Positions 21,164 through 36,267 of a DNA stretch of 64,000 bases are shown one piece after another. Below the pieces are notes generated by a model. The model saw only the letters and a list, made by a program, of their open reading frames with translations, was not told the DNA's origin and made no database searches. The DNA is from a virus. Each line of letters starts with the position of its first letter. Position 1 is the stretch's first letter. Both the position numbers and the translations under genes were made by a program. The stretch lies in IMG/VR virus record IMGVR_UViG_3300045988_112808; one strand, 5' to 3'.

Positions 21164-21901
21164 ATGAGAAGAAGATTTGAAAATAATGCTAAACTATATG
21201 AGTATAAGATAGTTAGCGATTGTATAGGGGGGGAGGTAATCGTAGAAGGAAAGAAAGTAGGCACCATTCCACAGGGCGGGCAATTTATCTTTCTGTCTAA
21301 AAAAGAACGGCTGGATTCCATAAGTGTCCAAGGCGGTGTTCCAATGGAAGATAGGCAAGAGATCGATAATAGGGTTGATACGACAGAGGAATTGCTTGAA
21401 CAGGATTCGGTGGTTCTTGCTGTTGCTTTAACAACCTCTCCTTATTATGGATTTAGAGTAAGTGTGATAGCACCTGATGAGTTTACGCTAAGAACAACCA
21501 ATAGGATTAATAGAACCTTTTTAATAACAAGCTTTACTCCACCTGCTGCTATATACGGTGTAAACTTTAGTGATCCTATTGTCCTTAATTATGATAGTTA
21601 CCAATATAAGATGCCAGATCTTGTAATTGATGGACCTCATGATAGAATAGTTAGGGCAGATCCTAATTTTACTTGGACTACAAGATGTACAGATGCCGAC
21701 TTTACACCTTTGCCATATCCAGAATCATGGTCTGGCCAAGGTTTAAATTCTATGTTCTTATCAGAAATGAAACGTCTTACTCCTGGTGATCATCATGTAT
21801 CATATACAGCTTATATTAAATTGGACTTGATAGATGATGGCGGAAGTAAAGTTCATACTGAATATCTGGTATTAGAAAAAACACTTAATTTTACGATATG
21901 A
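21164..21901 (+). CDS. MRRRF-motif protein (245 aa)
   Basis: Starts MRRRFENNAKL, 4 nt after the previous stop. It is the last plus-strand gene before the convergent hairpin. Confidence 0.75.
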   Translation: MRRRFENNAKLYEYKIVSDCIGGEVIVEGKKVGTIPQGGQFIFLSKKERLDSISVQGGVPMEDRQEIDNRVDTTEELLEQDSVVLAVALTTSPYYGFRVSVIAPDEFTLRTTNRINRTFLITSFTPPAAIYGVNFSDPIVLNYDSYQYKMPDLVIDGPHDRIVRADPNFTWTTRCTDADFTPLPYPESWSGQGLNSMFLSEMKRLTPGDHHVSYTAYIKLDLIDDGGSKVHTEYLVLEKTLNFTI

Positions 21902-21947
21902 CAACAATCCCCAACCGTACGCCTATTGTATGGTTGGGGATTGTTGT
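21901..21947. terminator. bidirectional terminator hairpin at the convergence of the two transcription blocks
   Basis: Perfect 16-bp inverted repeat ACAACAATCCCCAACC (21901-21916) / GGTTGGGGATTGTTGT (21932-21947), 15-nt loop, between stops at 21901 (+) and 21991 (-). Confidence 0.75.
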
Positions 21948-21990
21948 AGTTACCATCTTTTCTTGTATAAGCAGAACATGAAATAAGTTT

Positions 21991-22479
21991 CTAAGCATTA
22001 ACTTCATGACCTCCCCTATCCGTGAAAACTAAACCAATACCTTCTATGATATGTCCTACTACAGGAGCTTTGTCAAATTCCTCCTTCGTAGCCCAAGTAG
22101 CATTATCAGGCATCAGATCCTTGAATGCGTCCGAAACATCACCTTGACACCAGCAGTTATTTGATGTAACAATGCCTTTCCCTTCGATATTGATATACAT
22201 TTTTCTTCCACCACATCCAAGGCTGTTCCATCCGCTCGGTACGTTTTCCACCATAGGCTTAAGCACCCAGCTTACACCGTCTATCCTAACCCATCCCGGA
22301 TCGTCTTTGTGCTTGTCGTACAAGTTTTGCCAAAAAGAGCATTCGTAGCACCATCCCTTGTCTTCCATGATAGTTCTTATCTCACACCTTTCAAATCCAT
22401 CTGCATCCAACGTGTGCGGAGAATGAGGCTGGTGAGGGGTGCCACATTTTGGACATACGAGTTTTAAATTATCTTTCAT
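21991..22479 (-). CDS. hypothetical Cys/Trp-rich protein (162 aa)
   Basis: ORF-track ORF. N-terminal CPKC zinc-ribbon-like motif. Last gene of the minus-strand block. Confidence 0.7.
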   Translation of the reverse strand: MKDNLKLVCPKCGTPHQPHSPHTLDADGFERCEIRTIMEDKGWCYECSFWQNLYDKHKDDPGWVRIDGVSWVLKPMVENVPSGWNSLGCGGRKMYINIEGKGIVTSNNCWCQGDVSDAFKDLMPDNATWATKEEFDKAPVVGHIIEGIGLVFTDRGGHEVNA

Positions 22480-26956: not shown

Positions 26957-27313
26957 TTATATTACTCCTTCCAAATTTACTTTAATAGAACCATTTATGG
27001 TTTTAATGCTCCCATCTATGGTTGAAATCACATCATCTATATCATTTATAATACTTTCCATGTCATCAACCACCTCCTCCATATCAGTTACAGCCTGATC
27101 TGATTCCCAATATCTTTCTGAGTCTTGTAACGATTCCGGTATATTATCTCTCGCCTCAGTCTCTTCGTCTAAAATCATATCAACATCATCTTTGGCTGAA
27201 TTTATGTTGCACTTCAACTCCGATAACTTTGATTTGATGTATTCAAAATCTGTTTTATACTTATTTACGTTGTTAATAACATCCGATATTTTTTTTCTTC
27301 TCTTGTTGTTCAT
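26957..27313 (-). CDS. hypothetical acidic coiled-coil protein (118 aa)
   Basis: ATGA overlap with the helicase stop; Asp/Glu-rich. Confidence 0.65.
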   Translation of the reverse strand: MNNKRRKKISDVINNVNKYKTDFEYIKSKLSELKCNINSAKDDVDMILDEETEARDNIPESLQDSERYWESDQAVTDMEEVVDDMESIINDIDDVISTIDGSIKTINGSIKVNLEGVI

Positions 27314-28731
27314 GCTTTTATCCTATTATAATATTCTATAACCTTTTCTTTTCTATCTCCTGGTTTTACTGCCATATTCTCAGCCAAGAACCTAAAATAC
27401 GACACCGGTATGTCCTTGAATCTAATTCCTTCATATTTTCCAAACCACATTATTATACTATCAAGATCGTCTTCTCTCCTACCATCTCCATTCACAGATT
27501 TAAGCGAGGCTGCCCGACGAAGGATCTCGTCTTTGGTAATAATATCACCCATCCTTATATTAGACAGAAGTTGATCGCCAGCAAACATACACCAGCCCTT
27601 AGAAGGGAATTGCTCGATTGTCAGGTCTTCTATCCGACCAAAGCGTCTCATGTTGTCGCAGCAATCAACTATCAGCGCCTCTTTCTTGTCAGGATGGATG
27701 CGGACGGCGCGGCCTAATATTTGGTAATAAGTTGAATATGAGAAAGTTGGTCGACCAAACATCACACAATCAAGTTCAGGAAAATCAAATCCGGTAGCAA
27801 GCGTTGAATAATTAAAAACCACCTTCAACTTACCTTCTTTGAAATCGGATATGATTTGCTCTCTTTTCTTTTTGGTTGTTAGCGATGTTACGACACCGGT
27901 TATGGCTCCCATCCTGGCATTCATGAACTCTGATATTCTATTACATGATTCGATAGAATCCATGCAAACCAAAATGGCTTTACGCTCGTTCATAAGTTGA
28001 AGAAGGCGCTTGTAGATAGAGTTGTTTAAGCCGTTTCGTACAATACTTTCTTTAATAGATTCGTTGGTGTATTCGGCTCCGGTACTGTTTAACATCAGAG
28101 CCGATTCATCAAACGACCATCGTTCGTACTTAAGTGGACACCAAAACCCTTGAGAAGTTAGTTCTTGTATTTGAGTCACATGAACTATTTTCTTGAAGAA
28201 GTTATGCTCGTCTTTCGTCAGCATATTGAGCTTGCTATAGTTCCCTTCCAGCATGGAACTGTAGGTTCGGAGGCGGCAGGGAGTGGCGGTGAAGCCCAGT
28301 ACCTTCGCCTCTGGGAACCTGTTCATAAACTCCATAAATTCAGAACCTTCTTCAGGAGAATATCCTGAATGACATTCGTCTATCAATAAGGTATCTATCC
28401 CTATATCCTTCAACCTCGCTACATCTTTCTTTATGCTCTTTAATGTTGCATAAGTCATAGCCGACAGCTCCTTTATACCACATGAAGCAGAATATATAGT
28501 AGGTTTAGAACCGAATGATACGGCCTTTGCATAATTCTGCTCCAGAATCTCTTTTGAGGGCTGTAATACTAATGTCGGTCTATTTATTTCATGTGCTATC
28601 TTGGATATCAGAAGGCTCTTTCCACATCCGCATGGGGCTACGATTATGCCAGGCTTCTTAGATCTTCCTGTAAGAAACTTAAGCCCGGCATCTACTGCTT
28701 CTTTTTGGTAAGGTCTAAGTTCAAAGCCCAT
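27310..28731 (-). CDS. superfamily-2 DNA helicase (DEAH-type) with a C-terminal DUF3820-like tail
   Basis: Walker A APCGCGKS, motif II LLIDECH, motif III GFTATP, motif VI YQILGRAVR. The C-terminus MWFGKYEGIRFKDIPVSYFRFL resembles the KYKG..l..P..Yl.Wl module. Confidence 0.85.
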   Translation of the reverse strand: MGFELRPYQKEAVDAGLKFLTGRSKKPGIIVAPCGCGKSLLISKIAHEINRPTLVLQPSKEILEQNYAKAVSFGSKPTIYSASCGIKELSAMTYATLKSIKKDVARLKDIGIDTLLIDECHSGYSPEEGSEFMEFMNRFPEAKVLGFTATPCRLRTYSSMLEGNYSKLNMLTKDEHNFFKKIVHVTQIQELTSQGFWCPLKYERWSFDESALMLNSTGAEYTNESIKESIVRNGLNNSIYKRLLQLMNERKAILVCMDSIESCNRISEFMNARMGAITGVVTSLTTKKKREQIISDFKEGKLKVVFNYSTLATGFDFPELDCVMFGRPTFSYSTYYQILGRAVRIHPDKKEALIVDCCDNMRRFGRIEDLTIEQFPSKGWCMFAGDQLLSNIRMGDIITKDEILRRAASLKSVNGDGRREDDLDSIIMWFGKYEGIRFKDIPVSYFRFLAENMAVKPGDRKEKVIEYYNRIKA

Positions 28732-29437: not shown

Positions 29438-29607
29438 TACACTCCTTTTAAATAGTTGAACCATATATCCTCCAGCTTCTCCTGAAGCTCAAACGCTTTC
29501 TTGAAATTCCCGCATCTTACAGCAACGTCTCTCATGTATTCTACGTTTATAACTTCCGGATCTTGCCGGTATTTCGTTCTTAACTTTTGAACATCCTCGT
29601 ATTTCAT
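29437..29607 (-). CDS. small hypothetical protein (56 aa, below the ORF-track cutoff)
   Basis: ATG 29607 forms an ATGA overlap with the nuclease stop (MKYEDVQKLRTKYRQDPEV...). Fills an otherwise empty 140-nt gap. Confidence 0.5.
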   Translation of the reverse strand: MKYEDVQKLRTKYRQDPEVINVEYMRDVAVRCGNFKKAFELQEKLEDIWFNYLKGV

Positions 29608-30623
29608 CGTTTTATCTTTTTAGACGGATCCCAATCTGAAGAGAAAGGGCATTCGTTTTTGTTATGTAATCCAAAGTCACAATAATAACACAGCGCCGAC
29701 GGGCAGGGTAGCTTGTTTTGCGAAACAGGCTGGCTTAGGGTGGCGCGCCGCTTGCTATACCTGGCTTCTTCTGCTCCCTGGATGTACGCTTGAAATGCTT
29801 TTACACTATTATCTTCAAAATCATACATTTTAGACAAAGTGTCATTTAGCATCTCTATAGATTTTGTTTTACGTTCCTCATCTACCTTAACCTTTTGGTA
29901 CTGTCTGGTCCTGGTAAAGAAATAGATGTTCATATCTGGCATAACTCCGCCATATCTTCTATAGATGTAAAATGAATATATAGGATGCTGTAAATTTGTT
30001 TCCAACTTCTTAGAGTCAAAAACCTTATTACCGGATTTCCAATCTATGACATAATGGTGAACTACGTTCTTGCTTTTTATAGCCAGATGAAGATCCACCG
30101 ATCCTACTATGTACACATGAGTATGAACGTCACCATTTATATCAACAGGCTTAGGAAGACGGTACGGCAGCACAAAATCTTCTTCGACTCCAACTATAGC
30201 GCCGTGTCTAATAAGTTTCTCACAGGGATTAAGATCACTATCAGCTATCATAAACCTATTCCCGTCTTTTTTAAATAGATCTACAATCCAAGCAAGAAGC
30301 TCTCCAGATTGCTTCATGGCTATCATCATATTTTCCGGTGATTGCCAAGGTATGTCTTCCTGGTAAGCATAGTAACTTATTGCTTCTCCAAGGTCTTTAC
30401 CAGAAGGCTGTCTTCCGTTCTTAAAAAAGTATTCCAGTGTCTTATGGATAACCGTACCATAAGACGTAGCTTCTTGTTTTTCCGTAGACCTTTTGCCCTC
30501 TACGTAAGTCTTATACCATTTCATTGGACAGGTAAGAAACGTATCTATCTGGGAATAAGATATGGCAAGACGTTTTACACCATTAAACTCCTTATATAGC
30601 AAATGCGTTTCCGGGACCATCAT
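29604..30623 (-). CDS. PD-(D/E)XK nuclease, Cas4/RecB-like, with a Cys cluster
   Basis: N-terminal Cys (FLTCPMKW), GTVIHKTLE, VGSVDLHL, VIDWKSG (D-x-K), QHPIYSFY (QxxxY), C-terminal CPSALCYYCDFGLHNKNEC. Confidence 0.7.
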   Translation of the reverse strand: MMVPETHLLYKEFNGVKRLAISYSQIDTFLTCPMKWYKTYVEGKRSTEKQEATSYGTVIHKTLEYFFKNGRQPSGKDLGEAISYYAYQEDIPWQSPENMMIAMKQSGELLAWIVDLFKKDGNRFMIADSDLNPCEKLIRHGAIVGVEEDFVLPYRLPKPVDINGDVHTHVYIVGSVDLHLAIKSKNVVHHYVIDWKSGNKVFDSKKLETNLQHPIYSFYIYRRYGGVMPDMNIYFFTRTRQYQKVKVDEERKTKSIEMLNDTLSKMYDFEDNSVKAFQAYIQGAEEARYSKRRATLSQPVSQNKLPCPSALCYYCDFGLHNKNECPFSSDWDPSKKIKR

Positions 30624-30979
30624 AAGTCATTGTCTTTAAATCCTTCCGGGTAATATACGACATACTTCTTACCGTCTTCTGGTGTCATGGCAAACTGCAT
30701 GTAGTTATTACGATTACGATGCTTGCCATCTAATCCTCGCTTCCAATACAGAATCCCATCTATATCCACATAAGACCGTCCGCGTTCGGCTCTAACTACG
30801 TCCGTGTGTAGCAGATACCCGTCGGAAGACACGATCCACACTTTATCCCCTTTGTTTAAATAAGATATTCTTTTTCTTACAACAACCTTTTTCTTATTAT
30901 CTAATGCAAATTCCTCATCGGTCATACTCTTCATCCTCCTCTTCTTCTGTTTCAAAATCAATTCCATAACACTGATCAT
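30620..30979 (-). CDS. hypothetical protein (119 aa, or 101 aa from Met19)
   Basis: ATGA overlap with the nuclease start. The true start may be MTDEEF (30925), because a 36-codon acidic ORF (30914-31024) overlaps upstream. Confidence 0.6.
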   Translation of the reverse strand: MISVMELILKQKKRRMKSMTDEEFALDNKKKVVVRKRISYLNKGDKVWIVSSDGYLLHTDVVRAERGRSYVDIDGILYWKRGLDGKHRNRNNYMQFAMTPEDGKKYVVYYPEGFKDNDL

Positions 30980-31113
30980 AATGCTTGGTCAGTTCTTCTG
31001 GTTCTAAATCTTGTCCAAAATCCATGTTAAAAATATCGTAATTAGTAAAGCACTTAAAATCACTGTTCCCGCAGGCAGGAAATCTATGAATGCTGCTTTT
31101 ATTTCTTCAATTA

Positions 31114-31135
31114 GGCCCAAGTGTAACCTTGGGCC
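31114..31135. other. perfect 8-bp GC-rich palindromic hairpin downstream of the flotillin gene
   Basis: GGCCCAAG (31114-31121) / CTTGGGCC (31128-31135). No U-tract on the minus strand, so terminator function is uncertain. Confidence 0.4.
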
Positions 31136-31142
31136 ATTGTAT

Positions 31143-32843
31143 TTATTTTTTGTCATCTCCTTTTAATTTCTTTAAAGTATCTGCAATCGGAAGCTGATCA
31201 ATGACTCCCAATGCCGGAGCGACGGTCTTGACAACATTGTTAAGGAAATTACCGGTACTGTTCTGACCGCCGTCAAATACCGTGATATTTCCGAGATTAA
31301 TGTGCTCAAATGCTTTAACCTGTTCTCCAGCAATTTCTTTCCACTGATTAACCATCTTGTACTGGATGGCGATCTGAGGATTGGATTCTGCTGCTTCCAC
31401 CATAGCCTTAAATCCGTCGGCTTCTGCCATTAACGACTTTTTCTTACCTTCGGCTTCTGCCTCCAGCTTCATCTGAATAGCTTTTGCCTCTGCCTCAGCT
31501 TTTGCCAAATGTGCTGATGCCTCAGCCTCAGCCCGGCGTTTGATCTTCTCGGCCTCGGCATCAGCTTGCAAGATAGCCTCTTCCTTCTGGGTTTCAGCCG
31601 GCACAATCTTTTCAGCCTTAAGCGCAGCCTGAACTTTCTTAGCCTTAGCTTCTTCCACTTCTTTGTCTGCAAGCTCTTTTGCTGTTTTTACGGCCGCTTC
31701 CGATTTAACTTTTTCTTCTCCGGCCTTCTTTTCTGATTGAGCTTTGATAATCTGCAATTCTGATACTGACACAGCAACCTCCTTCTGGGCATTGTTGTAT
31801 CCTATAGACGCATTTTTCTCAGCCTCAGCCTTCTTAATCTGAGCTTCAGAGTTTTGTATTGCTATAGCTGCTTCCTTGTCAGCTTCAGCCTTGTTCTTTC
31901 CGACTTCTTCCATCCTTTCAGCCTCGGCTTTATTTACTTCAAGTTCTGCCTTAGATCTTACGATCGCCGATTCCTTGTCGGTTAAAGTTTTTGCGATAAC
32001 CGCAGCCCTATCTCTATCTGCTTGAGCTACACCAATCTGTTTTTCTTTATCGGTTAAAGCCAAAGCTATTTCTTTTTCTTTCTTCGTTTCAGCTACTATT
32101 GTTTCCTTTTCTTTTTCAGTACAAGCAATTTGAATCTCTTGTTCTTTTTTGGTATTAGCCACAGCCGTTTCTTTCTCCTTCTGCTGTACAGCAATCTTAA
32201 TAGCCCCCAGCTTCTCCTGTTCTTCGATATTAGCCTGTGCTTCGTTCAGAGCCCTACTTTCAGCCTCCTTACCAAGGTTCATAATATAACCGGCTTCGTC
32301 TCTAATGTCACTGATGTTGATGTTCAGGAGGTAAAGACCTAACTTGTTAAGCTCGTTATCAATGTTCTTTCTTGCCTTATCCAAAAACTCATCCCTGTCA
32401 GAATTAAGTTTTTCGATTGTCATTTCAGCAATAATCAAACGCATCTGACCGTAAACGATGTCCGTAATAAGATTTTCAGTAGATTCGGTATCCATTCCCA
32501 AAAGTCTTTCTGCCGCATTTTGCATGATCTCTGGATTTGTACTGATAGCTACTGTAATAGTCGTAGGAACATCTACTCTAATATTCTGAGATGACAAAGC
32601 ACCGGTAAGCTTGCAATCTATTTGCATAGGCTCCATTGACAAAACATCATAGCTTTGAATAATAGGCAAGACAAATGCCGCTCCACCATGATATAATTTC
32701 GCCGATTTCTTTTCCCCACCTGTCTTACCATAAACGACCAAGACCTGATTAGGCTTACATCTACGATACCTTGATAAGACTCCGATGATTGTCAAAATAA
32801 TCACTACAGCTAAGATAGCTGACACGTACATGATTGTTGTCAT
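31143..32843 (-). CDS. flotillin-family SPFH/Band-7 protein (YqiK/FloT-like)
   Basis: 566 aa. N-terminal TM anchor, PHB-domain motifs (NQVLVVYGK...GGAAFVLPIIQSYDVLSMEP), about 250 aa of Ala/Glu/Lys coiled coil, flotillin-type C-terminus. Confidence 0.85.
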   Translation of the reverse strand: MTTIMYVSAILAVVIILTIIGVLSRYRRCKPNQVLVVYGKTGGEKKSAKLYHGGAAFVLPIIQSYDVLSMEPMQIDCKLTGALSSQNIRVDVPTTITVAISTNPEIMQNAAERLLGMDTESTENLITDIVYGQMRLIIAEMTIEKLNSDRDEFLDKARKNIDNELNKLGLYLLNINISDIRDEAGYIMNLGKEAESRALNEAQANIEEQEKLGAIKIAVQQKEKETAVANTKKEQEIQIACTEKEKETIVAETKKEKEIALALTDKEKQIGVAQADRDRAAVIAKTLTDKESAIVRSKAELEVNKAEAERMEEVGKNKAEADKEAAIAIQNSEAQIKKAEAEKNASIGYNNAQKEVAVSVSELQIIKAQSEKKAGEEKVKSEAAVKTAKELADKEVEEAKAKKVQAALKAEKIVPAETQKEEAILQADAEAEKIKRRAEAEASAHLAKAEAEAKAIQMKLEAEAEGKKKSLMAEADGFKAMVEAAESNPQIAIQYKMVNQWKEIAGEQVKAFEHINLGNITVFDGGQNSTGNFLNNVVKTVAPALGVIDQLPIADTLKKLKGDDKK

Positions 32844-32875
32844 AACTTTTAAAATTTAATTGTTGATAAAAAAAA

Positions 32876-33364
32876 TTAGATACTTAGTTCTCCTTCTTCG
32901 TATTTTATATTCACCTTGTCACCGTTTTTGTAAGTTTTTCCAGACAAGCATCTTACTCTCATTTGCTCCTGTCTTCCATTTTTCGAAATATTTACCATAT
33001 AATGATTCTTCCCTGATCTAAATACTATCTCCACCTCTCTGCCATTTAAATCTTCCGGACATTCGTACACCATTTCTTGCTTTAACTTAAGAAGTAACTT
33101 ATATACGTAAAACAAAACGATAAAGAAAAACGACCCTATCACAACCCCTACTAAATGAGAACCCGAAAAGTAGGTAGTCCAGCTATATCCAAGAATAAAA
33201 TGTGTTATACCCTTAAATGATATGATGTCTGATAAAGACATGCTTAAATCAGAAGCATTGTCAATATCCGTATCCAGATCAGATCCTAATATCGACAACA
33301 AAAACTGTATAACAAAAGCAAATGATGCTATTAAAGCCATGCATAAAATTATATCACTTCCCAT
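32876..33364 (-). CDS. NfeD/YqiJ-like membrane protein
   Basis: 162 aa. TM helices, acidic loop GSDLDTDIDNASD, beta-rich C-terminal domain GREVEIVFRSG...GDKVNIKYEEGELSI. Sits 32 nt upstream of the flotillin gene, as in bacterial nfeD-flotillin operons. Confidence 0.6.
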   Translation of the reverse strand: MGSDIILCMALIASFAFVIQFLLSILGSDLDTDIDNASDLSMSLSDIISFKGITHFILGYSWTTYFSGSHLVGVVIGSFFFIVLFYVYKLLLKLKQEMVYECPEDLNGREVEIVFRSGKNHYMVNISKNGRQEQMRVRCLSGKTYKNGDKVNIKYEEGELSI

Positions 33365-33605
33365 ACCCTTCTGTTATTATTTTGTAAACAAGATCAGTCA
33401 TATCTTTGATGGTCTCCATATCATAATCAATAATAACAATATTGAATTTTTGTTCCACCATCACTTCCAGTTCAATTTGATCAACAGAATCTAATCCAAG
33501 TTCTTTAAACGTCACATCTTCTTCATGAACTATATCTATTTCCGAATTAAGAAACTGAGTAATAATTATATCCTCTATTATCTTTCTGATTCTTACTTTT
33601 TCCAT
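33354..33605 (-). CDS. acyl carrier protein-like (phosphopantetheine-binding) protein
   Basis: 83 aa. LGLDSVDQIELEVMVEQKF matches the ACP G-x-D-S-L/V-D-x-V/I-E-L signature with the attachment Ser. Overlaps the neighbours on both sides. Confidence 0.75.
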   Translation of the reverse strand: MEKVRIRKIIEDIIITQFLNSEIDIVHEEDVTFKELGLDSVDQIELEVMVEQKFNIVIIDYDMETIKDMTDLVYKIITEGYGK

Positions 33606-34306
33606 TGCTTTCTAATTTTGTTAAATAAATACGTTTTTATGTTTTTCAATCGCTCTTTGTCTGTTTCAGAACTTCCGGTAAACAAATAATCCGGATTGCC
33701 TTTAGCTGGCGGCGTAGGCAATTTAGATACGGCAAACAACCAATCCATTTCCTTATTCTTCTTAGACTCCAAATAAGGCTCGGTAGCGATCTTAAATTTT
33801 TCAGCTATTAAGTCAAAGAGCTTTGAATTTTTAAGGTTCATATGAACTGAAAAAGCCTGAGAAGGCGGTTTCCATATGAAGTTGCATAAGCTCATTGTAT
33901 AATCTCCTGACTCTGCTATATAAGATTCCGTTACCTGAAGTATGACCTCTTTCTTGAATGAGGTGTTACCCATAAACCAACACAATCTGGATTCCGCTTC
34001 TTTTCTGCTGACACCTATGTCTTTTGAATATGATTCGTACATTCCTATCATAATCTTCAACGTTTCCAGAACCTCGTCTGTCATCTCCGGTGTCTCTATA
34101 TAATTCACAAAAGACGTTCCTTTGTTGGTCAATCTCATCACGCCTGATTTTAATTTCTCAACCAGGCCAAGCTCTATATACCTCCCAGCATCTTCTTCCG
34201 GCATGGCTTCGATCATAACCGAATCCTTCTGTCTTATGGCAAGAAGATTAGCAAGATCATTAGGAGTCATGTCTGATGCTGCAAGTTGTCTGAAATTGAT
34301 GTACAT
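33593..34306 (-). CDS. hypothetical protein (237 aa)
   Basis: ORF-track ORF overlapping the ACP start by 13 nt. Confidence 0.7.
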   Translation of the reverse strand: MYINFRQLAASDMTPNDLANLLAIRQKDSVMIEAMPEEDAGRYIELGLVEKLKSGVMRLTNKGTSFVNYIETPEMTDEVLETLKIMIGMYESYSKDIGVSRKEAESRLCWFMGNTSFKKEVILQVTESYIAESGDYTMSLCNFIWKPPSQAFSVHMNLKNSKLFDLIAEKFKIATEPYLESKKNKEMDWLFAVSKLPTPPAKGNPDYLFTGSSETDKERLKNIKTYLFNKIRKQWKK

Positions 34307-34521: not shown

Positions 34522-35124
34522 TTAACTGTTGTACCCTTCTTTAATAATCGAATTTCTACCGGTAGATACCGACTGTCGAAGATCGTCATGTACAGAATCT
34601 ACCGTAGAATACTTGTTTCTGGTTGTAAAAATCACTTCCAGCATCTCCTTGTAATCACCTAAAGCTACTTCGTATCTCGGATCTACTTTGGCTTTTCTTT
34701 CAGCCTCGGCATTACTTTTAGCCAGTTCTCGATCAAGAAGATCTTCTTTGATTCGGTCAGCAATCATATCAAGTTCTTTTTTAATAACTTCTCCTGCTGC
34801 CCGAAGTTGACCTTCTACGTCACCAAGCTGGTCTTGGACGGTTCCTATTTCTTTCTTTAGACGATCGTATTCGTTAATCATACCCATATCACCAGCATAG
34901 CCAGAAAAGTCCTTGATTATTCTGGTTCCTTCTTTAAGGAGCTCAATAACTCGTCTTTTACGTTCTCTGCTTATTAAAGACGGAAGACGATAATTCATAT
35001 CCGCCACCGCCTTATCATGTATGGAGTTGATTAAAAACATCTCTCTTTCATCCCCTGCAAACTCAGTAAGAACCAAAAGGAACTTACTTATCAGGTATTC
35101 GTTTTCTTCTACTGTTAGTCTCAT
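34522..35124 (-). CDS. hypothetical coiled-coil protein (200 aa)
   Basis: ORF-track ORF, 15 nt downstream of the helicase gene. Confidence 0.7.
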   Translation of the reverse strand: MRLTVEENEYLISKFLLVLTEFAGDEREMFLINSIHDKAVADMNYRLPSLISRERKRRVIELLKEGTRIIKDFSGYAGDMGMINEYDRLKKEIGTVQDQLGDVEGQLRAAGEVIKKELDMIADRIKEDLLDRELAKSNAEAERKAKVDPRYEVALGDYKEMLEVIFTTRNKYSTVDSVHDDLRQSVSTGRNSIIKEGYNS

Positions 35125-35139
35125 GGTTCTTATTTTTTT

Positions 35140-36267
35140 TTAATACAATGACTGTTCTTCTTTTGTCTCTTGTTCCTGATTGTCCGTAACGTCTTCCACA
35201 GTATAGAGCTTAGGCGGCGTCGGCGGCTGGTTGGGGTTCACGAACTTCGTCCCGCCCTCCCCGTACATCCATCCATGTCCCGGCAGTATCTCTGGGTGGA
35301 TTGTATTAGTAAGCTCTTCCATACTAACTTGCCTTACCTTCAGTATATGATGAAACACAAGTCCGGCTGTCCTGAATGATGTTTTGTTTTCAGTTTTAAA
35401 CCTATCAAGAGTCTGATACCAATCTTTCCCAAATATCATATACTTATCCAGCCCGTACCTACGAGGATTGTGCAAACCTATCATTAACGTACATAACTGA
35501 CCCAGCGTATCAGATTGGTAAAAATCAGAAAGACGCGGAGGTTGCTCTTGTGGGCTTTTTATCCTTCCTTCTATCTCTCTGTTGAATTGGGATATGATGA
35601 GGAAAAATATGTTTTTATATACTAATTTAGCTTCGTTCATAACCGCCACCAAATCATCTATAGCCGACTTAGGATCTAATCCCATTCTTTTTATCAAAGC
35701 AATATGATCGACTTTAAATATTATAAGACGTTTGTCTTTGTGTTTGGTAGCTATATGATACACAGCCGCCTCAAACTCTTTTACCGTACACGGAGCATCG
35801 ATGTATATTATATTATTCCTGATTTCACCTTGAAGGATTTCAAACATCCTCATCTCTTCTACTGTATTAGAATCTTGCCTTCTTAATATTTCAGGAGCTC
35901 GCTTTTTCATATCTTGGCTCATTCTACGAAGAAGAAGATCTTGAGGATTCATTTCGAACTCGCAATTAACAAGAAAATAATCTTCTGCTTGCGGGTTGAT
36001 CATCGGATTCATCACATTTTCCAATATCTTTTGGGCCACATACGATTTACCTACAGATGGCCGGGCTCCTATGGCAATAGCGTGCTGAGGAAAAATACCT
36101 CCAAGCAAAGCCTCATCAATATAATCGTATCCGGTTTTAGCGGGGATAGGCTCTCCCCGCCTGTATTTCAAGATATTCTCATACGCCTCTTCCATAACCT
36201 GTTTAGAGGTTTTGAATATCCTTCTTATATCTATTTTATTTTTCAGATCCTCTTGCATTTTTGTCAC
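35140..36267 (-). CDS. dnaB: DnaB-family replicative helicase (C-terminal RecA-like domain)
   Basis: Walker A GARPSVGKSYVAQ, Walker B IIFKVDHIALI, ISQFNREIEGR (DnaB LSQLNR-like). Confidence 0.8.
   Translation of the reverse strand: MTKMQEDLKNKIDIRRIFKTSKQVMEEAYENILKYRRGEPIPAKTGYDYIDEALLGGIFPQHAIAIGARPSVGKSYVAQKILENVMNPMINPQAEDYFLVNCEFEMNPQDLLLRRMSQDMKKRAPEILRRQDSNTVEEMRMFEILQGEIRNNIIYIDAPCTVKEFEAAVYHIATKHKDKRLIIFKVDHIALIKRMGLDPKSAIDDLVAVMNEAKLVYKNIFFLIISQFNREIEGRIKSPQEQPPRLSDFYQSDTLGQLCTLMIGLHNPRRYGLDKYMIFGKDWYQTLDRFKTENKTSFRTAGLVFHHILKVRQVSMEELTNTIHPEILPGHGWMYGEGGTKFVNPNQPPTPPKLYTVEDVTDNQEQETKEEQSLY

Follow-up and report, generated by a model that had tools for sequence, protein, structure and literature searches.

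A probable host-derived NfeD2-type/flotillin gene pair next to a solitary acyl carrier protein gene in an epsilon crAss-like phage of the human gut

A three-gene cluster in an epsilon crAss-like phage

Three consecutive minus-strand genes, encoding an acyl carrier protein (ACP), a small NfeD-like membrane protein, and a flotillin, occupy positions 31143-33605 of a 64,000-nucleotide stretch of viral DNA (IMG/VR record IMGVR_UViG_3300045988_112808), the whole of which is referred to here as the window. Over the stretch holding the trio, the window is 97.5% identical to crAssE-Sib phage (GenBank OR575929), whose 151-kb genome is of the epsilon crAss-like group and was obtained from a human gut virome; its depositors labeled the three genes "acyl carrier protein," "transmembrane protein," and "flotillin family protein." The gene labels are thus already in GenBank, and the cluster is not a new kind of system; the paper describing crAssE-Sib never mentions the three genes (PMC11054128). 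A first-pass annotation, made from the letters of the window, had described the trio as tightly coupled and flanked by dnaB and a nuclease gene. Its coordinates, gene lengths, overlap, gap, and flanks were all confirmed, and the cluster itself consists of the following elements:

33354-33605, minus strand: ACP, 83 aa, containing LGLDSVDQIELEVMVEQKF
32876-33364, minus strand: NfeD-like (putative NfeD2-type) flotillin partner, 162 aa, overlapping the ACP open reading frame (ORF) by 11 nt
32844-32875, minus strand: AT-rich spacer of 32 nt between the NfeD-like gene and the flotillin gene, with a T-run that holds the left end of a recurrent deletion
31143-32843, minus strand: flotillin (SPFH2 type), 566 aa, beginning 32 nt downstream of the NfeD-like ORF

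Flotillin and ACP belong to recognized protein families

The flotillin scored 91.7 bits against Band_7 (PF01145; cut-off 23.6) over residues 30-211 and 39.1 bits against Flot (PF15975; cut-off 27) over residues 450-559. It matched the structures of human flotillin-1/2, with flotillin-2 (9bq2) recovered at E 9e-23, and could be aligned with E. coli YqiK over the full length (24% identity). Residues 5-28 (MYVSAILAVVIILTIIGVLSRY) are hydrophobic, a composition expected of an N-terminal membrane anchor, and residues 212-449 (238 aa) are 61% A/E/K/Q, with 21% Ala, 17% Glu, 17% Lys, and 3% Pro+Gly, this segment being called a coiled coil on composition only. The earlier identification of an SPFH/flotillin protein with a transmembrane (TM) anchor and an Ala/Glu/Lys-rich segment was therefore correct. 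The score against the NCBIfam FloT equivalog NF058507 was 146 bits (cut-off 700), and a Phocaeicola host copy reached 162 bits. By homology to the flotillin-1/2 and QmcA structures, the phage protein probably forms a membrane-attached oligomeric cage.

Flotillin length ranges from 408 to 659 aa among close relatives, with the indels mostly in the coiled-coil part; tandem DNA repeats were considered as the source of this variation and rejected, there being no array in the gene. Three IMG/VR loci in the set L002-L081 carry TAG in place of CAG (Gln) at flotillin codons Q405/Q490 in an otherwise intact gene. These codons could be ordinary nonsense mutations or could be read through as amber-to-Gln, a form of read-through known in some crAss-like phages; no tRNA genes are encoded in the window.

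The ACP scored 26.7 bits against the Pfam PP-binding family PF00550 (cut-off 20.8), matched PHROG 5934 "acyl carrier protein" at E 2e-8, and matched 116 solved ACP chains at E<=1; its orthologue in a diverged phage lineage (L082, see below) scored 32.7 bits against PF00550. The protein is acidic (20 D/E vs 9 K/R), and the phosphopantetheine-site motif LGLDS[V/I/L/A]D is kept in every readable allele (39 distinct sequences from 81 loci) and in the L082 protein, its Ser aligning with Ser36 of E. coli AcpP. The ACP call of the first-pass annotation was upheld by these matches, and conservation of the Ser, on which the call had been made to depend, was found. The protein falls below the NCBIfam AcpP equivalogs TIGR00517/NF002148-51 (best score 30.3 bits vs cut-offs of 66-106) and is 26% identical to E. 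coli AcpP, values that point to a divergent ACP-fold protein and not to an AcpP orthologue or housekeeping AcpP. At residues ~60-63, in the helix III region, the window-type ACP has three residues fewer than the L082-type ACP and E. coli AcpP. The helix III region of ACPs is involved in partner recognition.

We detected no phosphopantetheinyl transferase (PPTase), Fab enzyme, or acyltransferase in a Pfam scan of 30 window ORFs. Nor does the depositor annotation, covered for most of OR575929 (all but record positions 100001-110002), name a PPTase or lipid enzyme; ~120 genes are still hypothetical. Both results agree with the earlier statement that no PPTase or fatty-acid enzyme accompanies the ACP. 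With no phage PPTase found, the host AcpS would have to modify the ACP, and such loading is plausible for a protein in which the phosphopantetheine Ser is retained and helix II is acidic. As to its origin, a large-database search was full of close variants and returned no distant relatives, and a tblastn search of GenBank phages (50,697 records) with the L082 ACP recovered no similar ACP. Within the window the protein is an orphan, and it is specific to this phage lineage.

The middle protein resembles short NfeD2-type flotillin partners in fold and operon position

The 162-aa middle protein, to which an NfeD/YqiJ architecture had been ascribed, matched neither Pfam NfeD (PF01957) nor YqiJ (DUF1449) even at E<=1, had no NCBIfam or PHROG match, and had no PDB sequence match by phmmer. 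A profile search of 1.84 billion representative proteins identified 231 relatives, most of them 160-180 aa in length with full-length coverage. In an alignment of 67 relatives, the conserved order of elements runs from TM1 through an acidic D-x-D-x-D loop and the invariant SFKG..HF..G motif to a TM2-TM3 hairpin, followed by a beta-rich C-terminal domain; PF01957 was matched by one of the 67 aligned family members, at 6e-5. The AlphaFold2 model built on the 67-sequence alignment has a mean predicted local distance difference test score (pLDDT) of 89.4, with helices at residues 2-25, 50-67, and 70-94 and a six-stranded barrel at 110-161, and it replaced an earlier model built on a 6-sequence alignment (pLDDT 61). 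The C-terminal OB barrel was placed at residues ~108-162. YbbJ is the best full-length structural match, the OB domains of the two proteins aligning in register. Comparison by hhalign gave YbbJ at E 1.2e-3 with 20% probability and YqiJ at E 0.029, and YuaF alone was found when the family profile was searched against PDB sequences, at E 0.17.

The NfeD2 partners of flotillins, YuaF and YqiJ, are themselves unrecognizable by sequence (~21% identity) and were identified by architecture, barrel fold, and operon position (Hinderhofer 2009, PMC2636767). The phage protein combines N-terminal TM helices with a soluble C-terminal OB-type barrel resembling solved NfeD domains, as in the short NfeD2 form, and its gene lies directly upstream of a flotillin gene in phages and in 65 of 66 Bacteroidales chromosomes. 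Structure and genomic context thus rescue the NfeD assignment despite the failed profile searches: the middle protein is best described as a predicted short NfeD2-type (YuaF/YqiJ-like) flotillin partner, by fold and operon position and not by membership in a hidden Markov model family. Of the earlier NfeD/YqiJ proposal, the architecture, fold, and context have stood, and the profile matches by which it was to be judged have not been obtained. The 231-member NfeD2-like family is chromosomal in 66 gut Bacteroidales species and is unrecognized by Pfam, NCBIfam, and PHROG; defining it would improve the annotation of phage and host genomes.

The NfeD-like/flotillin pair is found in Bacteroidales chromosomes without an ACP

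Hosts were surveyed with one genome per GTDB species, which yielded 66 loci containing the NfeD-like gene, nearly all from Bacteroides, Phocaeicola, Parabacteroides, and other Bacteroidales. The flotillin gene (~545 aa) that lies directly downstream in all but one of these loci is separated from the NfeD-like gene by ~20-25 nt. An ACP was not detectable within 4 kb on either side of the NfeD-like gene in any of the 66. Among database relatives, those furthest from the phage flotillin are encoded on bacterial contigs (L087 and L088) among housekeeping genes, and just before each is a gene for a 165-aa homolog of the middle protein (39-42% identity), again with no ACP.

The phage flotillin is 62-66% identical to Bacteroides/Parabacteroides flotillins, the best match being from Parabacteroides, and no host copy more than 66% identical was found; the phage NfeD-like protein is 36-42% identical to its host counterparts. 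A simple neighbor-joining (NJ) tree places the phage flotillin inside the Bacteroidales, sister to the gut Bacteroidaceae/Tannerellaceae group, and related prophage sequences have been reported in Parabacteroides (PMC11054128), consistent with capture from that host lineage. Since the pair never occurs with an ACP in the 66 host loci, its distribution argues that the phage carries a captured Bacteroidales NfeD2/flotillin operon together with an ACP that is a phage-specific neighbor. The first-pass annotation had been unable to explain the location of the trio between dnaB and a Cas4-like nuclease gene. As an accessory insert in the early/replication block, a captured host operon needs no special explanation for its position.

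The diverged phage lineage L082 has the same order of ACP, NfeD-like, and flotillin genes between the same DnaB and nuclease genes, and its proteins are 82% (flotillin), 60% (NfeD-like), and 38% (ACP) identical to those of the window. Only 36-66% identity is left between the phage proteins and any host copy, and the capture is therefore old. The nearest GenBank isolates by DnaB are Cellulophaga phages (29% identity), in which there is no match to the phage flotillin, and sampling of IMG/VR for L082-type and Epsilonduovirus genomes returned window-type genomes only. An IS605 OrfB/TnpB (Cas12f-like) gene is present ~5 kb downstream of the module in L082 (L082:13497-14288), in line with TnpB genes reported for some Epsilonunovirus genomes (PMC11054128).

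Flotillin is strongly constrained where present and repeatedly lost

Selection and gene loss were assessed with two samples, a flotillin-anchored set of 80 IMG/VR loci and a census of IMG/VR loci chosen independently of flotillin and anchored on the gene for a 237-aa protein upstream of the ACP, 100 of which were informative. The trio is syntenic in 80 of 80 flotillin-anchored loci and in the diverged lineages L082 and L089, so that the linkage expected by the first-pass annotation holds in every related phage locus that has the three genes. Across the flotillin-anchored loci, the ratio of nonsynonymous to synonymous polymorphism (pN/pS) is 0.046 for the NfeD-like gene, 0.042 for flotillin, 0.073 for DnaB, 0.063 for the nuclease, and 0.34 for the ACP. 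The ACP is also broken in 7 of these 80 loci, by premature TAA/TGA stops in five and by frameshifts in two. Stop-codon recoding was rejected as an explanation of the in-frame stops: both TAA and TGA are used, not one reassigned codon, and two more alleles are frameshifted. The ACP evolves fast under relaxed constraint and was not in the ancestral operon.

The state of each gene in the census, and the segment most often missing, are as follows:

Flotillin (n=100): intact 67, absent 24, truncated 9
NfeD-like (n=100): intact 97, broken 3
ACP (n=100): intact 93, broken 7
31032-32872, no strand assigned: segment present or absent among wild genomes, corresponding to a recurrent 1.84-kb deletion that takes flotillin and most of a 50-aa ORF

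ACP sequence is present in all 100 gene-anchored loci (partial in L255), and the ACP and NfeD-like genes are intact in nearly all of the 33 loci in which flotillin is absent or truncated, including 22 of the 24 from which it is absent. The IMG/VR loci contain eight distinct deletion junctions: 32873->31031 in 16 loci, 32871->31034 in 5, and six more that are unique. The recurrent 1.84-kb deletion starts 3 nt past the NfeD-like stop codon, in the T-run of the spacer. In ENA/Logan assemblies, we found at least nine different in-frame alleles in which the N terminus of the NfeD-like protein is fused to the C terminus of flotillin. The fusion-allele contigs come from independent samples and are well covered, and the three alleles that were checked lie on long phage contigs (one of 32 kb at 54x, one of 41 kb, and one found in seven samples) on which the other parts of the module are intact. 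Because the L082 lineage also has the pair, loss and not gain is the parsimonious direction of change. In flotillin-less genomes, the NfeD-like gene has a pairwise pN/pS of 0.092 at a pS of 0.14, vs 0.063 in flotillin-positive genomes. Flotillin is optional for these phages, being under strong purifying selection where present and lost or truncated in about one-third of wild genomes.

Two further kinds of variation were observed at this site. In L255 (IMGVR_UViG_3300045988_117453), a 2.4-kb deletion (33555->31171) takes most of the ACP, the NfeD-like gene, and flotillin, and the whole trio is thus dispensable at least for persistence in the metagenome. In the flotillin-less loci L176, L183, and L185, ~360 nt unrelated to the window replaces a 119-aa gene (30620-30979, minus strand); the spot, between the deletion scar and the nuclease gene, is a second variable site adjoining the flotillin cassette.

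Genes adjoining the cluster

The genes that adjoin the trio or bound the block are as follows:

31004-31156, minus strand: hydrophobic ORF, 50 aa, with a 14-nt overlap with the flotillin stop; a coding sequence in OR575929, with no Pfam/PHROG match
33593-34306, minus strand: 237-aa conserved protein, its gene invariably the one just upstream of the ACP, which it overlaps by 13 nt; the census anchor
35140-36267, minus strand: DnaB-like replicative helicase (DnaB_C; PF03796, 61.7 bits; PHROG 37407), the upstream bound of the block
29604-30623, minus strand: PD-(D/E)XK (Cas4-like) exonuclease (PF12705, 76.2 bits; PHROG 69 "exonuclease"), the downstream bound of the block

The 237-aa gene has a pN/pS of 0.037 and 199 relatives in IMG/VR, and its product matched no Pfam, PHROG, NCBIfam, or PADLOC model. 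Its similar size and an SRKEAESR stretch made it a candidate for a hidden Sfp-type PPTase, which was rejected for want of a family match and of a G-x-D motif. Short ORF overlaps recur in the module, with 13 nt shared by the 237-aa gene and the ACP and 4 nt by the nuclease gene and the gene upstream of it; start/stop overlaps of this kind are generic here, and the 11-nt ACP/NfeD-like overlap is therefore no special evidence of functional coupling. The 50-aa ORF carries frame-breaking indels in 27 of 80 loci and has a pN/pS of 0.27; it is poorly conserved, and its status is that of a doubtful or rapidly changing gene. Models of PADLOC-DB v2 gave no match for the ACP, NfeD-like, flotillin, 237-, 200-, or 50-aa proteins.

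The most constrained gene of the block, with a pN/pS of 0.004 over 79 loci, encodes a 200-aa protein (34522-35124, minus strand) between DnaB and the ACP neighborhood, which is probably a coiled-coil protein and has no family match. Downstream of the nuclease gene is a ResIII/Helicase_C gene of 473 aa in the window and other loci; its counterpart in L160 (L160:7882-10335, Logan SRR31242603; window 27310-28731) encodes 817 aa with a Hom_end_hint (intein/homing endonuclease) domain, which points to an intein insertion in that strain. On a larger scale, coding strand and GC skew change sign at window position ~21900-22000. The structural genes upstream of this point, two ORFs of 2033 and 2137 aa among them, are on the plus strand, and the early/replication block downstream, which contains the trio, is on the minus strand. 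A scan for sigma-70 promoters and intrinsic terminators around the trio, which does not cover Bacteroidales promoters, gave counts close to those of shuffled sequences and no convincing signal.

A probable host-derived accessory module and a separate ACP

We consider it probable, at roughly 60%, that the cluster consists of two evolutionarily separate neighbors, a host-derived NfeD2/flotillin accessory module with a putative role in host interaction and a phage-specific orphan ACP. The finding is of a host-derived accessory gene set in a phage, accompanied by a lone ACP that falls in the "auxiliary metabolic gene" class. The link of the ACP to the scaffold pair is one of adjacency only, and no sign was found that the ACP takes part. 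The earlier view of the trio as a coupled unit was not supported: no ACP accompanies the pair in the 66 host loci, the pN/pS of the ACP is 0.34 vs 0.04-0.05 for its partners, and flotillin is absent or truncated in 33 of 100 loci. The evidence favors an accessory module, putatively for host interaction, over a three-gene machine, and flotillin is the least stable member of the trio.

An ancestor of the epsilon crAss-like lineage would have taken the two-gene operon from a Bacteroidales host and placed it in the early/replication block, in the same direction of transcription. By analogy with solved complexes, flotillin would anchor itself by its N-terminal hydrophobic segment, and its long Ala/Glu/Lys coiled coil would mediate oligomerization into a cage at the host inner membrane, on the cytoplasmic side. 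The NfeD-like protein would be embedded by its three helices in the membrane patch that the cage encloses and would dock on the SPFH ring through its OB barrel. This model draws on QmcA-YbbJ (PDB 8z5g; Tan 2024), on flotillin cages (9bq2), on FloA-NfeD work (PMC13086221), and on PMC2636767. The population data suggest a module that belongs to the early program as an accessory of conditional use and is not a core component of replication or assembly. The NfeD-like gene is almost never lost and is constrained without the phage flotillin, which makes it probable that its product can also partner the flotillin of the host, 62-66% identical to that of the phage. The physiological role of the module is a guess, the candidates being membrane stabilization, phage exclusion, and modulation of membrane proteases. 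Speculatively, the most likely role would be to remodel or stabilize the cytoplasmic membrane of the infected cell, for example to preserve envelope integrity or proton-motive force in a prolonged infection, or to exclude competing phages.

Several considerations weigh against this interpretation. The direction of transfer is drawn from gene distribution and the simple NJ tree, not from a rigorous phylogeny. Many of the IMG/VR loci come from one study, which makes the frequencies rough, and deletion alleles seen in a single sample could in some cases be assembly artifacts. If flotillin-plus and flotillin-minus genomes recombine, the NfeD-like gene could appear constrained even in the event that its product depends on the phage flotillin. 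Finally, the constant adjacency of the ACP in two lineages, with ACP sequence in 100 of 100 loci, may leave room for a functional link.

A role in phage-phage or phage-host conflict, whether through superinfection exclusion, protection from the membrane damage of abortive infection, or modulation of membrane proteases, would be a more specific form of the accessory interpretation and appears unlikely, with some features in its favor. Presence and absence at the strain level, with many independent losses and yet strong purifying selection, is typical of conflict genes under fluctuating selection, and the proteins are membrane located and encoded in the early block. A model for protease modulation is provided by HflK/C, which controls FtsH and the lysis-lysogeny decision of lambda. 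The phage genus carries a repressor and anti-repressors, and a lysogeny decision may exist (PMC11054128). However, the block gives no match to PADLOC defense models and lacks an adjoining partner of the toxin, nuclease, or sensor kind; the SPFH proteins known to cage FtsH are of a class other than the flotillins (SPFH2); and the host already has a flotillin copy of its own.

It is distinctly improbable, in our estimation, that the three genes form one functional unit in which holo- or acyl-ACP works with the scaffold, delivering acyl chains to the enclosed patch or serving as a structural subunit of a phage-specific lipid-remodeling microdomain. ACP sequence does stand directly upstream of the NfeD-like gene wherever the latter is present, in all phage loci and both diverged lineages; the two ORFs overlap; the phosphopantetheine Ser is invariant in readable alleles, with a canonical helix II; and the ACP and NfeD-like genes persist together after flotillin loss. 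Set against this, none of the 66 host operons has a nearby ACP, and the evolutionary regime of the ACP differs sharply from that of its partners, both in pN/pS and in its 38% identity between lineages vs 60-82% for the pair. The disrupted ACP alleles, 7 of 80 and 7 of 100 in the two samples, are all in genomes with an otherwise intact pair. The ACP is joined just as tightly to the unrelated 237-aa gene, overlaps being generic in the module, and neither the 30 window ORFs scanned nor the reference annotation examined yielded an acyltransferase, PPTase, or Fab enzyme.

Another arrangement, to which we likewise attach long odds, would make the NfeD-like protein, possibly with the ACP, the core of the system, acting as an adaptor that inserts into host flotillin cages and repurposes host microdomains. 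The phage flotillin would then be an optional booster, and the ACP would supply an acyl- or phosphopantetheine-dependent activity. Such an adaptor would explain why 97% of genomes keep an undamaged NfeD-like gene, why it remains under purifying selection after flotillin loss, and why it has diverged further from the host (~40% identity) than flotillin has (~64%).

That the pair is a functionless passenger, brought in with host DNA by illegitimate recombination and now decaying, is very improbable: the loss or truncation of flotillin in one-third of genomes through many different deletions would suit it, but the pair is as constrained as DnaB (pN/pS 0.04-0.09 at pS ~0.15), has been kept across phage lineages diverged to 82% and 60% protein identity, retains an intact NfeD-like gene in 97 of 100 loci, and, at 36-66% identity to any host copy, was captured long ago.

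Flotillin/NfeD operons are widespread in bacteria, and their physiological role is poorly defined. On the interpretation that we prefer, of a captured accessory module beside an unrelated ACP, an abundant phage lineage of the human gut took such an operon from its Bacteroidales hosts and has kept it under strong selection. Wild genomes of this lineage provide dozens of near-isogenic natural knock-outs, among them flotillin deletions, in-frame fusions, and ACP nonsense alleles. Given a cultivable relative, or heterologous expression in Bacteroides/Parabacteroides, this natural allele series would be a comparative system for what a flotillin cage does for the cell or the virus.

Comparison with known systems

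Flotillins are annotated in other phages too, for example in Vibrio phage KIT04 (Demerecviridae), whose protein shares Band_7/flotillin similarity with the window protein at ~30% identity over the SPFH half. It differs in belonging to an unrelated phage family, in representing an independent acquisition, and in having no NfeD-like partner or ACP annotated adjacent to it. Solitary acpP genes occur in phages and prophages, for example in Rhodobacteraceae prophages, where they are sometimes the only metabolic gene and are uncharacterized (PMC8224337). Like that class (PHROG 5934), the window ACP is a small phage-encoded PP-binding protein; it is set apart by relaxed selection, occasional pseudogenes, and the lack of similarity to ACPs in GenBank phages.

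The mechanistic model, in which the NfeD partner is integrated into the SPFH cage, comes from E. coli QmcA-YbbJ (8z5g) and the archaeal stomatin/NfeD pair PH1510/PH1511 (3wwv, 2exd). In these systems, the NfeD protein pairs with a stomatin-type (SPFH1) protein and not with a flotillin-type one; in addition, the gene order of QmcA-YbbJ is reversed relative to the phage pair, and the long archaeal NfeD forms carry a ClpP protease domain that is absent from the phage protein. B. subtilis yuaF-floT and E. coli yqiJ-yqiK (SPFH2 + NfeD2; PMC2636767) are closer in organization, with the gene for a small membrane protein with a C-terminal barrel directly upstream of a flotillin gene, and with flotillins that likewise run from an N-terminal anchor through an SPFH domain and an EA-rich coiled coil to a Flot domain. 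The resemblance at the sequence level is low, YqiK being 24% identical to the phage flotillin and YqiJ and YuaF giving no significant match to its partner (E 0.029 and 0.17). The acidic D-x-D-x-D loop and the SFKG..HF..G motif are specific to the family of the middle protein and distinguish it from YuaF/YqiJ.

The chromosomal operon of Bacteroides, Phocaeicola, and Parabacteroides (e.g., P. massiliensis DSM 17679 and Parabacteroides sp. ASD2025; L090-L154) has the same two genes in the same order and with the same architectures, and its partner gene, like that of the phage, is matched by no Pfam or NCBIfam model. The operon differs in its chromosomal location, in having no ACP, and in the length of its flotillin (~545 aa vs 566 aa in the phage). 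This Bacteroidales NfeD-like/flotillin operon is the evident source of the phage pair.

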